A stretch of 64,000 nucleotides of DNA. Origin: Candidatus Giovannonibacteria bacterium RIFCSPLOWO2_02_FULL_43_54. GTDB taxonomy: Bacteria; Patescibacteriota; Minisyncoccia; UBA11713; 2-01-FULL-45-33. Positions 10,106 through 61,240 of this stretch are shown here, one piece after another. The first letter of the stretch is position 1. Each line of letters opens with the position of its first letter. The notes beneath the pieces were generated by a model, which saw nothing but the letters and a program-made list of their open reading frames with translations, searched no databases and was not told where the DNA came from. The DNA is taken from positions 2,033 through 66,032 of the forward strand of contig MFIK01000041.1 of NCBI GenBank assembly GCA_001778875.1, read 5' to 3'. A program made the translations under genes and the position numbers.

Positions 10106-11632
10106 ATGGATTTTCTCACGCTCATCAAGGCGGCGGCGGCTTTATTAGTTGGTACGGCAGTTGGTTATTTTCTCCGTCAATTCATCGCGCTCAAACAAAA
10201 CGATTCGCTCGAACTCAAGGCTAAGCGAATTTTATTGGACGCCAAAGAATCCGCCCAGAAAGTTTTGGACGATGCCAAGTCGCGTGCCGAGAAGGTTTTG
10301 GAGGGGGCAAAGGACGAGCAAAAAGAGCGCGAACGCGACTTAAGAAGGCTGGAAGAAAGGATAACGCACAAAGACGAAACCCTGGAAAGGCGCTCGCAGG
10401 AGCTTGATAAGGAGACCAACGCGATAAAGGAAAAAGTCGAGAAATTGAGGGCGATGAAGGAGAATTTTGAGAAGATTGACGCGGAGAAGCGCCTTGAACT
10501 TGAGAAGGTCGCGAAACTGTCGACTGAGGAGGCAAAAGAAAAACTCATCACGGAAGTCGAGAAAAAATACGAATCAGATATTTTGGCCAGAGTCCAGAAG
10601 ATGGAAAGGTTCGGCCTGGAAGAGTTAGAAAGAAAGGCCCGTGATATTTTGGCCTCAACCATCCAGCGTATCGCGTCATCTACCGCGTCTGAAGTGACGG
10701 TTACTTCGGTTACTATTCCTTCGGATGATTTGAAAGGGAAAATTATCGGGAAAGAAGGCAGAAATATCCGCGCGCTTGAGCGCGCGGCCGGAGTAGAGAT
10801 AATTGTGGACGATACCCCGGGGGCGATATTAATTTCGAGCTTTGATCCTGTACGGAGGCAGATCGCAAGGGTTGCGCTGGAAAATTTGATTTTGGATGGC
10901 AGGATACAGCCTGCAAAGATAGAAGAAATGGTTGAGAAGGCAAAGACAGAAATTGAAAAAATTATCAAAGACGCCGGAGAAAAAGCCATTTACGAGATCG
11001 GCGTTTTTGACATAGATCCAAGACTCATCATGCTTTTGGGGAGATTGAAATTCAGGACATCCTACGGCCAAAATGTTCTTCAGCACTCGATTGAAATGGC
11101 TCATGTCGCGGGAATGCTGGCAAGCGAATTAAAAGCCGATGTAAATATTGCCAAAAAGGGATCCTTGCTCCATGACATAGGAAAAGCGGTTGATCACGAG
11201 ATCCAGGGAACGCACGTTGAGATTGGACGCCGAATTTTGCAGAAATTCAATGTGGATGTCCGCATCATTCAGGCAATGCAGTCGCACCATGAGGAATATC
11301 CTTATGAAACATTGGAATCCATTATCGTCCAGACCGCGGATGCGATTTCCGCATCACGTCCGGGTGCGCGAAGGGACTCGGTTGAAAATTATGTAAAGCG
11401 GCTGGAGGATCTCGAAGGCATCGCGACATCATTCAAAGGAGTTGAGAAAGCATATGCGATCCAGGCGGGACGCGAAATAAGAGTATTTGTTACTCCTGAA
11501 AACTTGTCCGATCTCGAAGCCAAAAAAATGGCCCGCGACATCGCGGACCGGATTGAGAACGAATTAAAATACCCCGGAGAGATCAAAGTGAATGTGATTC
11601 GGGAAATGCGTGCGATTGAATACGCGAGGTAG
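10106..11632 (+). CDS. rny: Ribonuclease Y (N-terminal transmembrane helix, coiled-coil, KH and HD domains)
   Basis: KH segment IIGKEGRNIRALE; HD-domain segment LLHDIGKAVDHE; 508 aa. Confidence 0.9.
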   Translation: MDFLTLIKAAAALLVGTAVGYFLRQFIALKQNDSLELKAKRILLDAKESAQKVLDDAKSRAEKVLEGAKDEQKERERDLRRLEERITHKDETLERRSQELDKETNAIKEKVEKLRAMKENFEKIDAEKRLELEKVAKLSTEEAKEKLITEVEKKYESDILARVQKMERFGLEELERKARDILASTIQRIASSTASEVTVTSVTIPSDDLKGKIIGKEGRNIRALERAAGVEIIVDDTPGAILISSFDPVRRQIARVALENLILDGRIQPAKIEEMVEKAKTEIEKIIKDAGEKAIYEIGVFDIDPRLIMLLGRLKFRTSYGQNVLQHSIEMAHVAGMLASELKADVNIAKKGSLLHDIGKAVDHEIQGTHVEIGRRILQKFNVDVRIIQAMQSHHEEYPYETLESIIVQTADAISASRPGARRDSVENYVKRLEDLEGIATSFKGVEKAYAIQAGREIRVFVTPENLSDLEAKKMARDIADRIENELKYPGEIKVNVIREMRAIEYAR

Positions 11633-11795
11633 AAAAAGTCTAAATAAAAAAATGGGAGCGAAAGAAAACTATCAACGCCACAAAAAGGGCACTTTATCAT
11701 TATACGCTCCTTAAAAAGTTATTATCTGATGTGAAACTAACATATTGTTTTGTGCTTGTAAATAGCAGTATAAAACGCTATGATGAAAAACTAAC

Positions 11796-12812
11796 ATGAA
11801 ACTTCTAATCTATGGGGACGTGGTCGGGAAACTTGGCAGAGAAGGTGTAAAACATACACTATCTTTTTGGCGTGAAAAATATTCTCCGGATGTTGTTATT
11901 GCGAACGTAGAAAATATAATGCATGGGAAAGGGATAGGCCCGGCGCAGATCCGGGAATTGCGCGACGCGGGCGTAAATATTTTTACCGGAGGGAATCATT
12001 CTGTTGAAGGAAAAGATGTTGAGAAAATTTTGAACGATGAAACCATTGCGATTACGCGCCCCGCTAACATGCGCGAAGATCTTCCCGGCAGGGGAGCGGT
12101 GCTTTACCAAATCCGAAACCAGAAATCCGACTCGCCTGCCGGACGGGCAGGAATCCGAAACGAAGGTAGGGTTTCACTCGAAAGCGAAACAGCTGAGTCG
12201 AAGGCAGAGGTTTTTCAAGACTTTTCGCAGTCCCGCCACGGCGGGACGAGACTTAGCAATTCGCCAGCAGGCGAATATGCGGGTCTTGAAAAATCTGCTG
12301 CCGAGACGAAGCTTCTTGTCATCAACCTCATCGGGCAGGTTTTCATGCATCAGGAATATGCCTCCCCTTTTATCGCGATAGACAAAATTTTGGAAGAGTA
12401 CAAGGGAAAAACACCGTTCATTATTTTAGACTGGCACGCGGACGCAACGTCCGAAAAAACTATCATGGGAAGGTATTTGGACGGAAAAGTTTCCGCCGTA
12501 TTCGGAACGCATACTCACGTACCGACCGCGGACGCGAAAATTTTACCCAAGGGTACGGCATATATTTCCGACATAGGAATGGTCGGCCCTTATGAGTCAA
12601 TTATCGGCGTTGAAATTGAACCATCAATCGAAAGATTCGTAAAAAACATCAAGACTCCGAAAAATCCGGTTGAAACCGGACCTATAGAAGTGAACGCGAT
12701 TTTGCTGGAGTTGAGTGATGGAATTAGCAAACCAGCCTCCGCTAAAGCTACGGCGGGTAAAGCTGTGGATATCAGGCATTTGCGGGAAATCGTTACAGAG
12801 TATAAAATTTGA
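11796..12812 (+). CDS. ymdB: YmdB-family calcineurin-like metallophosphoesterase (2',3'-cyclic nucleotide phosphodiesterase) carrying a ~65-aa low-complexity insertion
   Basis: Colinear with B. subtilis YmdB (GDVVGKLGR, RPANMREDLPG, ILDWHADATSEK, GTHTHVPTAD, KGTAYISDIGMVGP); rny-ymdB synteny; the segment between GRGAVLYQ and KLLVINL has no counterpart in YmdB. Confidence 0.8.
   Translation: MKLLIYGDVVGKLGREGVKHTLSFWREKYSPDVVIANVENIMHGKGIGPAQIRELRDAGVNIFTGGNHSVEGKDVEKILNDETIAITRPANMREDLPGRGAVLYQIRNQKSDSPAGRAGIRNEGRVSLESETAESKAEVFQDFSQSRHGGTRLSNSPAGEYAGLEKSAAETKLLVINLIGQVFMHQEYASPFIAIDKILEEYKGKTPFIILDWHADATSEKTIMGRYLDGKVSAVFGTHTHVPTADAKILPKGTAYISDIGMVGPYESIIGVEIEPSIERFVKNIKTPKNPVETGPIEVNAILLELSDGISKPASAKATAGKAVDIRHLREIVTEYKI
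12111..12315 (+). repeat. GC-rich hairpin-rich in-frame insertion within ymdB
   Basis: Three perfect hairpins (CCTGCC/GGCAGG at 12135-12151; GTCCCGCC/GGCGGGAC at 12230-12247; TTCGCC/GGCGAA at 12260-12275) and flanking direct repeats (AATCCGAAAC twice, AGACTT twice); local GC well above the gene average. Confidence 0.45.
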
Positions 12813-12837: not shown

Positions 12838-13128
12838 ATGAATAAAGCGGAGTTAGGAGAGAAACTGCACGAAATGCACGCCAAGAAAGGCGTTGACGTT
12901 TCGAAAAAACACGCGGATGAAGTAGTCGATTTTATTTTCGACACCATTACAAGCTGTCTTAAAAAAGGAGACGAAGTTTCCATCGCCGGTTTCGGCGCTT
13001 TCATTGTGAAGCAGCGCAAGGCCCGCACTGCGAGAAACCCGAGAACCGGAGAAATGGTCCAGGTTCCCGCGACCACAGTCCCCCGCTTTAAGGCCGGGAA
13101 AGCCTTGAAAGAGGCGGTGAAAGCTTAG
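12838..13128 (+). CDS. hup: HU-family DNA-binding protein
   Basis: 96 aa; motifs GFGAFIVKQRKARTARNPRTGE and the arm region are typical of HU/IHF. Confidence 0.9.
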   Translation: MNKAELGEKLHEMHAKKGVDVSKKHADEVVDFIFDTITSCLKKGDEVSIAGFGAFIVKQRKARTARNPRTGEMVQVPATTVPRFKAGKALKEAVKA

Positions 13129-13133
13129 CTTTC

Positions 13134-13169
13134 ATCCCGCCATTGGCGGGGATCATTGCTAAAGCAATG
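13134..13169 (+). terminator. Two adjacent small hairpins downstream of hup (CCCGCC att GGCGGG, then CATTGC taaa GCAATG)
   Basis: Inverted repeats right after the hup stop; no strong T-run. Confidence 0.3.
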
Positions 13170-13788: not shown

Positions 13789-13860
13789 TGCGAGCGGCGG
13801 GAGTCGGACCCGCGTCTGCTGCTTGGAAGGCAGCCATAATAGCCGTTATACTACGCTCGC
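13789..13860 (-). tRNA. tRNA-Gly (anticodon TCC)
   Basis: Manual fold: 7-bp acceptor GCGAGCG/CGCTCGC, anticodon stem GCTGC/GCAGC with loop CTTCCAA, T-arm CGGG.TCCGACT.CCCG; unusual T-loop TCCGAYT shared with the neighbouring tRNA. Confidence 0.75.
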
Positions 13861-13879: not shown

Positions 13880-13953
13880 TGGTCGGGGTGCCGAGAATCG
13901 GACTCGGCCTTCGTGCTCCCAAAGCACGCGTACTACCAATATACTACACCCCG
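13880..13953 (-). tRNA. tRNA-Pro (anticodon TGG), CCA encoded
   Basis: Manual fold: acceptor CGGGGTG/CACCCCG, D-arm GTAT.ATTGGTA.GTAC, anticodon stem CGTGC/GCACG with loop TTTGGGA (G37), T-arm CCGAG.TCCGATT.CTCGG, then A-CCA. Confidence 0.75.
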
Positions 13954-59005: not shown

Positions 59006-61240
59006 ATGCAAAGTAAAAAATTTACGGCGGAAGTCGGCGGAAGGACTTTAACCGCCGAGTTTACCGACATGGCACATCAGGCCAATGGTTCCTGTTTAAT
59101 AACTTACGGGGGCACGGTCATCTTGGCAACGGCGGTGCAATCCAAAAACGCCCGCGAAGGAACGGACTTTTTTCCGCTAACAGTTGACTATGAGGAAAAA
59201 TTTTACGCCGCGGGAATGATATTGGGTTCGCGTTTTATGCGAAGGGAGGGCAAGGCTTCCGACGAAGCTGTTTTGGTATCGCGGCTTATTGATCGCTCCA
59301 TCCGCCCTCTATTTTCGCAAAAAACCAGGAATGAGGTTCAGGTAATTATTTTGGCGCTCTCAATCGATGAAGATAACGATCCGGATATTTTATCTATTTT
59401 GGGCGCATCTTTGGCGCTCGGCACCTCAAATATTCCCTGGGCAGGCCCGATAGGCGCCGTAAGAATAGGAAAAAAAGATGGCAAATTGATAATCAATCCT
59501 TCCTACTCGGACAGGCTCGATGCTTCGCTAGATACAGTTATCTGCGGAAAGGACGGGAAAGTAAACATGATTGAGGCCGGCGCTCTCGAAATCTCCGAAG
59601 ACGAAATGATGGAAGCGCTAGAAACCGCGAGTCGCGAAATTGACAAGCTTTGCGATTTCCAAAAAAAGATAATTTCCGAACTTGGAGAGAAAAAAAACGA
59701 AATCAAATTGGTCGAGGCGCCAGCGGATATGAAAGAGATGTTCAAAAAAAATGTCGTAAAAAAACTCGAGGAATCTATCTATATCAAAGAAAAATTGAAT
59801 AGATACGAGGCGCTGAACCAATTAAAAAAGGGCTGGGTGGAAACCTGTGTTGAATTTTTCCCCGAAGTTTCCAAATCTATCTCCGACGGGCTTTTTGAAG
59901 AGGCGATAGATGAGATTGTGCATAAAAATATTATTGAGAAAGAAAAGAGACCGGACGGCAGGGGAACAAAGGAAATCCGCAAACTTTTTGCGAAAGCAGG
60001 ATTATTTCCAAGAACACACGGCTCGGGATTATTTTACCGCGGAGAGACGCATATATTATCTATAACAACCCTCGGCGCGCCTTCGGATGTCCAGCTTATC
60101 GAAGGAATGGAAATTCGCGCAAAAAAAAGATTCATGCACCATTACAACTTCCCGCCTTTCTCGGTCGGCGAAATCAAACCGATGAGGGGCCCAGCAAGAA
60201 GAGATATCGGACACGGCGCTTTGGCCGAGCGTGCTCTCTTGGCGATCATCCCGAAGCCGGAAGATTTTCCGTACACGATTCGCGTGGTTTCCGAAACACT
60301 TTCGTCAAATGGATCATCCTCGATGGGCTCGGTTACAGCTGGCGCCTTGTCCCTGATGGACGCGGGAGTGCCGATCAAAGCCCCGGCCGCGGGAATCGCG
60401 ATGGGATTGATGTTGAGCGAAGCGAAATCCGCCTCAGGCGGAATGGATGACTACCGCTACAAAATTCTCACCGACATCCAGGGACCGGAAGACCATCACG
60501 GGGACATGGATTTCAAAGTTGCCGGAACGAAAGACGGAATTACGGCAGTTCAAATGGACGTTAAAGTGGCAGGAATTCCTTTGAAAATAATGAAAGAGGT
60601 GTTTTTGCAGGCACGCGAGGCGCGCATCCAAATACTTGAAGTGGTTACAAAAGAGCTTCACGCGCCGAGACCGGAGCTTTCGGAATACGCTCCGCGTATT
60701 CTTACAATGCATATTAATCCTGATAAAATTAGGGACGTTATCGGACCTGGTGGTAAAATGATCCAGTCGATAATCGCGGAAACCGGCACGGAAATAGACA
60801 TTGAGCAGGACGGGACTATTTTCATTACCGCGACAAATCCTGACGGCATGAAAGCCGCGGAAGCAAAAATACAAATGCTCACGAAAGAATTCGTTGTCGG
60901 AGAAACATTTGAAGGAAAGATAACGCGCATCTTCCCGTTCGGTGCGATGGTTGAAATTGGCCCAAAACAGGAGGGCTTGGTGCATATCTCGGAGTTGGCG
61001 CCTTTTCGCGTGAATCAGGTGACAGACGTGGTTTCTCCGGGAGATGAAGTAAAAGTAAAAGTTGTCGGCATCGACGATCAGGGAAGGGTGAACCTTTCGA
61101 TCAAGGCGGCAATGGAACTCAAATTAAAATCTCCCGAAGCGCGCGCAAGCGGCGAATCGGAAGCCAGGCGTCAGCAAGACTCGCGTGAACGAAGGGACGG
61201 AGGCGGGTTTGGCGGACGAGGCGGAGGACACAGAAGATAA
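59006..61240 (+). CDS. pnp: Polyribonucleotide nucleotidyltransferase (PNPase) with a C-terminal RGG-rich tail
   Basis: Two RNase PH domains, KH (GPGGKMIQSI) and S1 domains; 744 aa. Confidence 0.95.
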   Translation: MQSKKFTAEVGGRTLTAEFTDMAHQANGSCLITYGGTVILATAVQSKNAREGTDFFPLTVDYEEKFYAAGMILGSRFMRREGKASDEAVLVSRLIDRSIRPLFSQKTRNEVQVIILALSIDEDNDPDILSILGASLALGTSNIPWAGPIGAVRIGKKDGKLIINPSYSDRLDASLDTVICGKDGKVNMIEAGALEISEDEMMEALETASREIDKLCDFQKKIISELGEKKNEIKLVEAPADMKEMFKKNVVKKLEESIYIKEKLNRYEALNQLKKGWVETCVEFFPEVSKSISDGLFEEAIDEIVHKNIIEKEKRPDGRGTKEIRKLFAKAGLFPRTHGSGLFYRGETHILSITTLGAPSDVQLIEGMEIRAKKRFMHHYNFPPFSVGEIKPMRGPARRDIGHGALAERALLAIIPKPEDFPYTIRVVSETLSSNGSSSMGSVTAGALSLMDAGVPIKAPAAGIAMGLMLSEAKSASGGMDDYRYKILTDIQGPEDHHGDMDFKVAGTKDGITAVQMDVKVAGIPLKIMKEVFLQAREARIQILEVVTKELHAPRPELSEYAPRILTMHINPDKIRDVIGPGGKMIQSIIAETGTEIDIEQDGTIFITATNPDGMKAAEAKIQMLTKEFVVGETFEGKITRIFPFGAMVEIGPKQEGLVHISELAPFRVNQVTDVVSPGDEVKVKVVGIDDQGRVNLSIKAAMELKLKSPEARASGESEARRQQDSRERRDGGGFGGRGGGHRR

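Follow-up and report, generated by a model that had tools for sequence, protein, structure and literature searches.

Rickettsia palindromic elements (RPE) are palindromic repeats of 100-150 bp that sit, in frame, within dozens of unrelated genes and can be accommodated by the folds of the encoded proteins (Ogata et al. 2000 and 2002, summarised in PMC10969869). Here we describe a comparable element in a 64,000-nt stretch of DNA from Candidatus Giovannonibacteria bacterium RIFCSPLOWO2_02_FULL_43_54 (contig MFIK01000041.1, positions 2,033 to 66,032 of the forward strand; hereafter the window), in which the metallophosphoesterase gene ymdB carries an in-frame insert of 67 codons. The insert is a composite, its 3' 107 nt being a copy of a palindromic element that is dispersed among unrelated genes and its 5' 88 nt forming a separate, weakly structured layer. 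In all likelihood the element is palindromic selfish DNA lodged in a surface loop of YmdB that tolerates it, and its sequence is translated as part of the host protein.

Like RPE, the element is a palindromic repeat of ~100 nt, found in frame in unrelated housekeeping genes of a host with a small, gene-dense genome, encoding a conserved peptide that is compatible with the host fold and having no transposase of its own; it likewise forms a long hairpin, keeps the reading frame and occupies surface loops (in YmdB and UvrB). It differs from RPE in belonging to the Patescibacteria, or candidate phyla radiation (CPR), in being GC-rich within an AT-rich genome, and in its modularity, with hairpin modules of 15-30 nt nested inside it and also inserted alone. 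A further difference is that its flanks continue the stem and its orthologous copies are more conserved than the host genes. On structural features, then, it would be an analogue of RPE rather than a demonstrated homologue by sequence.

Classical MITEs (transposable elements of the miniature inverted-repeat type) such as Correia, ERIC, BOX and RUP are mainly intergenic, make direct target-site duplications and often have a recognisable parent insertion sequence (PMC10969869). The CPR element resembles them in being short, non-autonomous and foldable, with terminal inverted repeats, and some MITE copies are intragenic with in-frame fusions (PMC10969869), but it shows no direct duplication, and no parent element was found in the ~1.3 Mb of loci fetched for comparison. 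The mitochondrial genes of Nematomorpha contain long inverted repeats that are translated, with protein and hairpin both preserved; their arms are locus-specific and code for conserved parts of the protein, unlike the CPR palindrome, which is added, dispersed and located in a disordered loop (PMC6649704). A full-text literature search found no relevant published report of palindromic or miniature inverted-repeat elements in CPR/Patescibacteria.

The GC clusters of yeast mitochondria resemble the CPR element in being small GC-rich hairpin elements that spread in an AT-rich genome, coding sequence included. REP/BIME repeats are extragenic short hairpins with a conserved GTAG head that act as single-strand structures and are mobilised by RAYT transposases, and some insertion sequences target the loops of REP. 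The CPR element, in contrast, is intragenic and without the GTAG head, and the loci examined showed no RAYT gene. Membership of the REP/BIME group was rejected because every ~100-nt copy found lies inside an open reading frame (ORF).

A composite in-frame insert in ymdB

The host gene and the insert as a whole are placed as follows.

11796..12812, + strand: host gene ymdB, 338 aa, a TIGR00282/YmdB-family metallophosphoesterase
12111..12311, + strand: whole composite insert, 67 codons, IRNQKS...SAAETK, protein residues 106-172

The ORF at 11796..12812 matches the Pfam family YmdB (PF13277) in two stretches (E 5e-82). Aligned to the solved Bacillus subtilis YmdB (4B2O), query residues 1-103 correspond to residues 1-102 and query residues 171-313 to residues 108-248, with ~67 query residues replacing 5, which agrees with the initial annotation of a protein colinear with YmdB except for an insert of ~65 residues. 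In an alignment of 30 sequences, including 29 homologues, the gap between GRGAxLY and KLLVINL measures 0-10 residues in most close homologues versus 67 in the window. The segment first proposed, 12111-12315, keeps its start, the end being moved about one codon upstream to 12311. The insert has a G+C content of 54.6%, compared with 45.3% in the remainder of ymdB and 43.6% in the whole window; the excess over the gene is real but moderate, rather than marked as had been suggested.

Three perfect hairpins with stems of 6-8 bp, as originally reported, are present together with a long-range stem that had been overlooked.

12135-12140 / 12146-12151: perfect hairpin, 6 bp
12230-12237 / 12240-12247: perfect hairpin, 8 bp
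12259-12265 / 12270-12276: perfect hairpin, 7 bp
12208-12221 / 12283-12296: long-range stem, 14 nt

Across its 64 kb the window contains 38 perfect hairpins with GC-rich stems of at least 6 bp, and two of those listed (at 12135 and 12230) fall in the 205-nt segment versus ~0.12 expected, a ~16-fold excess; the hairpin at 12259, whose stem is 57% G+C and thus below the GC filter of the window list, would make the segment denser still. The 205-nt segment folds to -89.7 kcal/mol (z = -6.1 relative to dinucleotide shuffles, 0/200), and its minus strand has a folding z of -4.9. It is 12189-12316 towards the 3' end that gives the signal (folded as DNA, z = -6.5), whereas 12108-12198 on the 5' side is not significant (z = -1.6). 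The insert can be divided into the following parts.

12110-12119 and 12152-12161, + strand: exact 10-nt direct repeat AATCCGAAAC, 10/10, spacing 42, bracketing the mini-hairpin
12131..12151, + strand: 21-nt GC mini-hairpin module CTCGCCTGCCGGACGGGCAGG, peptide SPAGRAG
12162..12198, + strand: linker between the two layers, with a weak GTTTC...GAAAC hairpin
12191..12313, + strand: full stem with site-specific outer pairs, AGCT..GTC at 12191-12198 pairing with GAC..AGCT at 12306-12313 in minimum-free-energy structures
12199..12305, + strand: copy of the dispersed palindromic element, subfamily A, 107 nt, encoding KAEVFQDFSQSRHGGTRLSNSPAGEYAGLEKSAAE
12208..12221, + strand: 5' long arm AGGTTTTTCAAGAC, partner 12283-12296
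12230..12247, + strand: central hairpin GTCCCGCC ac GGCGGGAC, the variable module of the element
12259..12276, + strand: conserved inner hairpin ATTCGCC agca GGCGAAT
12283..12296, + strand: 3' long arm GTCTTGAAAAATCT, partner 12208-12221

The terminal inverted repeats of the element pair GGCAGAGGTTTTTCAAGAC with GTCTTGAAAAATCTGCTGCC, and the linker at 12162-12198 partly repeats the element's 5' end (CGAAGGTAGGGTTT compared with CGAAGGCAGAGGTT). A third, partial copy of the 10-nt repeat, AATCCGA, lies at 12124-12130, and the repeat may have arisen either by duplication at insertion or by slippage. The initial annotation had read AATCCGAAAC and AGACTT as direct repeats resembling target-site duplications. 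Each does occur twice; both copies of AGACTT, however, belong to the consensus of the dispersed element and are therefore not a duplication made at ymdB, so that AGACTT was rejected as a target-site duplication, and the flanks of the element are inverted instead. The likeness to RPE, proposed for the segment as a whole, applies to the 107 nt at 12199-12305 and not to the 5' 88 nt. A YmdB protein 98% identical to that of the window (P0001) differs from it at 7 residues, which lie within window residues 138-150 and all fall in the element's 5' arm and central hairpin (AEVFQDFSQSRH against AEFLQVFPRPRR).

Copies of the element in unrelated genes

Scanning metagenome contigs with YmdB as the protein query gave 8 loci that match solely residues within 111-212, essentially the insert. 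Copies of the element were located by blastn and nhmmer, and their host genes were named by reading the ORFs at the fetched loci.

Leucyl-tRNA synthetase (LeuRS) copies: L152, L153, L155-L157
UvrB copies: L154, L163
GatB copy: L151
MiaA-like ORF copy: L151, minus strand; the ORF reaches the contig end, and the name is a candidate from translation alone
Two glycosyltransferases: L158, three copies within 3 kb, one reversed
Cysteine desulfurase copy: L160
Second GatB site: L159, upstream sequence not GatB; not relied on
holA-like gene copy: L161, candidate name by reading, without a Pfam hit on record

The contigs that carry these copies have Candidatus Giovannonibacteria as their nearest named relatives. 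There are about 12 distinct host sites, with 78-96% nucleotide identity between genes, and the copies match the nucleotide profile of the element at E values of 1e-22 to 1e-35 (nhmmer). The prediction of further copies in relatives was thus borne out in unrelated genes, as was that of orthologues lacking the insert, most ymdB orthologues having 0-10 residues at the site or other palindromes in its place; together these uphold the view of an RPE-like in-frame palindromic insertion. The holA-like gene is likewise without the element in its L163 orthologue. L159 is an 803-nt contig with a coverage of about 1, in which the C-terminal part of GatB follows the element, and may be a chimera or a disrupted gene; its two flanks are mutually complementary, as at other copies.

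The element has the consensus GCC GAA GGCAGAGGTTTTTCAAGACTTTTCGCAG, followed by a variable central hairpin and then by AGACTTAGCAATTCGCCAGCAGGCGAATATGCGGGTCTTGAAAAATCTGCTGCC GA GGC. Two subfamilies are set apart by paired changes in the long arms, A with TTTTTCAAGAC / GTCTTGAAAAA and B with TTTTGCAAGACC / GTCCTTGCAAAA, and at one and the same ymdB site the window has an A copy and the L081 orthologue (76% protein identity) a B copy. Other copies have GCGCGACGGCGC at the site of the central hairpin, either alone or together with a nested palindrome of 20 nt, CCTGCCTGCCGGCAGGCAGG. Host genes carry the element in either orientation, with two copies reversed; the UvrB copy of L154 is forward, and that of L162 is reversed and has diverged greatly.

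We infer from the distribution of these copies that the element is non-autonomous mobile DNA, since neither a transposase nor a solitary terminal repeat was found to speak for mobility directly. Several results weigh against this reading. The sequences compared are metagenome assemblies throughout. No second copy was detected within the 64-kb window by blastn or the nhmmer profile, and ~210 kb of flanks not selected for the element contain one further copy, so the copy number per genome is probably modest. A HMMER search of the 67-aa insert against 1.84 billion cluster representatives gave 3 matches, one of them spurious, and hence only two further carriers, a scarcity attributable to clustering at 50% identity, which hides carriers. 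Solitary terminal repeats, a parent insertion sequence and a transposase were not found in the ~1.3 Mb of fetched loci, and no direct target-site duplication was seen, the flanks being inverted instead. In other searches, a word-indexed protein search with an alignment of the element peptides as query yielded 2 candidates, neither of which scored, and viral contigs scanned for the element core gave no match.

Proteins P0038 and P0012 consist of halves of the window's YmdB joined exactly at the element to a glycosyltransferase and a phosphoglucomutase, respectively, and P0072 has the same kind of junction at the element for an L081-type YmdB. The chimeric YmdB proteins are probably assemblies that collapsed at the repeat, and therefore point to further copies in the same populations. 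Across the set of P0038, P0012, P0072 and P0077 the partner of YmdB is a glycosyltransferase, a phosphoglucomutase or a membrane protein; in P0077 a short unrelated N-terminal leader is joined at the KSDF palindrome described below. Repeats of this kind yield chimeric contigs and public chimeric proteins (P0012, P0038, P0072, P0077), a hazard for the annotation and binning of metagenome-assembled genomes and for the clustering of their proteins into families.

Hairpin conservation and site-specific flanks

The hairpin of the element is preserved by covariation beyond the level seen in controls. The consensus structure of 12 copies has 42 pairs, with 92.9% of cells paired, and at 19 of the 42 both sides have changed with pairing kept, compared with 8.0 +/- 1.9 in column shuffles (0/500 reach 19) and 3-11 with a slid partner. 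The long arms covary between subfamilies (TTTTTCAAG/CTTGAAAAA versus TTTTGCAAG/CTTGCAAAA), and the inner hairpin has the compensatory variants ATCCGCC/GGCGGAT (L081) and ATCCCGC/GCGGGAT (L161).

The stem runs past the conserved core, 4-9 nt outside it being mutually complementary and differing from site to site. For example, the outer flanks pair GTTGCC with GGCAAC at UvrB, TGGGCC with GGCCCA at a glycosyltransferase, and AGCTGAGTC with GACGAAGCT at the window's copy. With the conserved GCC/GGC left aside, pairing reaches 4.0 of 7 positions between the two flanks of one copy and 2.36 between flanks of different sites (12 sites, permutation p < 1e-5). Complementary flanks and the lack of a direct duplication do not fit a classical cut-and-paste DDE element. 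Comparison of the empty UvrB site of L161 with the filled site of L154 shows ~13 extra codons in the filled allele besides the element, so that the exact insertion junctions are unreadable at UvrB, the empty sites being too diverged.

Copies and hosts do not diverge in step. Orthologous copies in LeuRS are 97% identical while the surrounding host sequence is 67-81% identical, and, conversely, at ymdB the window and L081 share 72% identity in the element and 87-88% in the host flanks. The mismatch between copy and host-flank identity indicates that a copy's evolution or replacement is not tied to its host gene.

These properties might also be expected if no transposition had taken place, the palindromes having grown in place by template switching and the units having spread by ectopic gene conversion between pre-existing hairpins. 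Template switching at quasi-palindromes during replication is familiar from the Escherichia coli literature, and growth in place would account for stems that extend into site-specific flanks, for the compensatory arm-to-arm changes and for finding neither a direct duplication nor a transposase. The near-identity of the LeuRS copies within diverged host flanks, and the ymdB site that holds form A in the window and form B in L081, overwritten independently of its host, are equally suited to conversion. Gene conversion nevertheless requires a homologous recipient, which leaves unexplained the first arrival of the element at short orthologous sites that are still empty in UvrB (EKIS-GGN-KIFP in L161) and in the holA-like gene (L163), and units of ~100 nt that are 78-96% identical in about a dozen unrelated genes would be hard to build locally. 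We therefore regard this account as rather improbable.

A second alternative, which we consider very improbable, is that the host has adopted the hairpin as a structure that works in RNA or DNA, for instance by stabilising the mRNA, by offering RNase a place to cut or by pausing replication or transcription, and keeps it for that role. The strong covariation, orthologous copies more conserved than the surrounding host gene, several forward-strand G-U positions (pairs 23-111 and 38-98) and the position of ymdB next to rny are consistent with such a role. Against it, Rfam returned two tRNAs and nothing else for the whole window at gathering thresholds, and no match even at E <= 10 over 11900-12500, group I and group II intron models included. 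Moreover, the copies lie in both orientations relative to transcription, which speaks against a role played by the RNA, splicing for example; the functions of the host genes are unrelated, many orthologues are without the element, and the central module varies freely. The nested structured RNA that the initial annotation had offered as an option is accordingly not supported, given the Rfam result and the two orientations.

Translation and protein fold

In every copy read in its gene the host ORF continues through the element, with no stop and no net frameshift. The element has three stop-free frames, +0, +2 and -0 (two forward, one reverse), and nested insertions are 21 nt long. Subfamily B and the reversed copies undergo an internal change of frame and then return to the host frame, avoiding the stops of the other frames, and the reversed copies encode different peptides. 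Because the examined copies are all stop-free in the host frame, the insert is most likely translated along with the host protein; the tryptic peptides predicted from it are AEVFQDFSQSR and LSNSPAGEYAGLEK.

AlphaFold2 assigns a predicted local distance difference test score (pLDDT) <50 to residues 110-168, between strands 101-105 and 172-179, where the initial annotation had suggested checking for a disordered loop, and a pLDDT of at least 90 to 189 residues, the enzyme outside the insert being well modelled. In this model the YmdB insert is a disordered loop at the tip of a beta-hairpin, where 4B2O has a 5-residue turn. The modelled catalytic fold is intact, and we infer that the insert would be neutral for the enzyme. 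The UvrB copy also sits at a short turn, which is empty in many orthologues.

It is extremely unlikely that the element is instead removed or skipped at the RNA level, as a small intron or by translational bypass, to give a protein without the insert. The long stem would bring the two host flanks together, as such a step might need, and CPR bacteria are known for intervening sequences in their rRNA. Removal from the mRNA would, however, require no keeping of the frame, and the in-frame copies thus argue for read-through, all of them being open and in frame even where they contain nested insertions or self-cancelling internal frameshifts. Reversed copies also exist, the intron models of groups I and II gave no signal, and self-splicing introns are far larger than the ~100 nt of the element. 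A self-splicing intron of group I or II was rejected on these grounds (no Rfam match at E <= 10 over 11900-12500; element ~100 nt). Lang et al. 2014 are said to have described 'byp' elements in Magnusiomyces, likewise small GC-rich hairpins in an AT-rich genome, which reportedly break the frame and are passed over during translation by the ribosome. The CPR copies differ in being open and in frame, and a translational bypass element was rejected since no copy read has a stop or a net frameshift.

Ordinary lineage-specific expansion of a loop by protein evolution, with incidental hairpins, could draw on the variable length of this loop within the YmdB family, but has next to no chance of being correct, as the initial annotation had already held: the same nucleotide sequence recurs in unrelated genes, which refutes it, the reversed copies give different peptides, and the folding z-scores and covariation are far beyond chance.

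Smaller hairpin modules and insertion hot spots

The 21-nt mini-hairpin of the 5' layer has relatives of its own. Related 21-nt units (CCTGCCTCGCTGGCAGGCGGG and a variant) occupy two different YmdB loops in L089 and L088, the 17-nt core of the mini-hairpin occurs also in L098 with a close variant in L154, and in L157 and L158 the relative CCTGCCTGCCGGCAGGCAGG is nested in the larger element's central hairpin. The stem TCCGCC...GGCGGA marks a second family, which codes for PPAGG, SAKGG and peptides like them in further YmdB, LeuRS and holA-like genes. Hairpins in terminator-like positions and those in coding sequence seem to be drawn from a common pool.

A 30-nt perfect palindrome with the halves GAAGTCCGACTTCCC and GGGAAGTCGGACTTC (KSDFPGKSDF) occupies the same YmdB loop in L084, L001 and L093, and the KSDF peptide motif also occupies the UvrB loop in other species. 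UvrB orthologues of the clade range from 636 to 714 aa, with such peptides at a dozen loops, and the loop that holds the element is empty in many relatives and variously filled in others. As the YmdB loop is filled differently across relatives, it constitutes a hot spot, and the insert of the window is one case of a clade-wide habit. Small hairpins of this type would provide a concrete mechanism for many short lineage-specific loop insertions in CPR proteins, examples from YmdB and UvrB being PAGG, PASxAGG, SAKGG and KSDF.

The window's YmdB has another insert of this kind.

12729..12761, + strand: second lineage-specific insert, KPASAKATAGK, in the C-terminal beta-hairpin of YmdB

At this site L084 has an intact stem, CCCGCC...GGCGGG, and the window has CCAGCC; from its sequence, the insert looks like a decayed GC hairpin. 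It coincides with residues 311-316, which have a pLDDT <50.

Proposed spread of the element

If the element is selfish palindromic DNA, as we favour, new copies would arise by insertion or by copying from site to site, in a hairpin-dependent step that is probably favoured at existing palindromes; such a preference would explain both the nesting and the hot spots. Persistence would be limited to copies that keep the frame open and fall at loops, where read-through would place at a beta-hairpin tip a disordered peptide of ~35 aa from the element, or 67 aa from the composite as a whole. The arms would be kept complementary and the copies alike either by arm-to-arm and copy-to-copy copying or by selection on the hairpin needed for spread. 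The covariation of the hairpin and the complementary flanks make the mechanism directly testable.

In-frame selfish palindromes in housekeeping genes have so far been treated as almost peculiar to Rickettsia. An independent family in the CPR/Patescibacteria suggests a more general outcome, in which scarce intergenic space leaves small mobile DNA to survive by being translatable. More tentatively, and with considerable doubt, the Giovannonibacteria lineage may harbour a layered system of 15-30-nt modules and ~100-nt units, with hairpin-targeted insertion, complementary flanks and copies that are kept homogeneous. Were this the case, mobility or copying would operate on single-stranded hairpins outside the described transposition routes and would steadily supply the essential proteins of ultra-small bacteria with new surface loops.

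Genomic context and additional hairpins

The ymdB gene lies between the genes for RNase Y (10106-11632) and HU (12838-13128), and the order rny-ymdB-hup is kept in relatives, for which the nearest named records are Candidatus Giovannonibacteria (Parcubacteria/CPR; Patescibacteria). The rny-ymdB spacer spans 11633-11795 in the window, 7430-7690 in L082, 9080-9602 in L084, 9470-9981 in L087 and 9518-9998 in L088. Small mobile-looking genes occur in this spacer in relatives, namely a free-standing GIY-YIG ORF, PemK, and ParE and HicAB toxin-antitoxin pairs; the window's own spacer has none of these. Two alternative-frame ORFs cross the insert, at 12037-12381 (+, 114 aa) and 12174-12350 (-, 58 aa), and are not evidence of genes because the element is stop-free in 3 of 6 frames, of which they are a by-product.

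Downstream of the HU gene and a 183-aa ORF are two tRNA genes, at 13789-13860 and 13883-13953 (-). A terminator-like hairpin, CCCGCC att GGCGGG, follows the 3' end of the HU gene and is conserved across relatives.

13136-13150: terminator-like hairpin after HU in the window
11308: the same in L081
11211: the same in L084
4198: the same in L093
6753: the same in L157

In L157 the 20-nt palindrome CCTGCCTGCCGGCAGGCAGG is present once before a T run, in a terminator-like position, and once nested in the LeuRS element. The motif CCGCC N3-9 GGCGG is observed 4 times in the window compared with 0.39 expected. In L162 (7306-8683) a reverse transcriptase gene (RVT_1) adjoins a bAvd gene, the signature of a diversity-generating retroelement, beside ruvA and uvrB. 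The PNPase gene of the window (59006-61240, +) contains the GC hairpin TCCGCC tca GGCGGA at 60428-60442, which codes for part of a ~10-residue insert, SEAKSASGGMD, that is missing from solved PNPase structures, and which belongs to the stem family shared with the small coding hairpins in relatives' YmdB and LeuRS.

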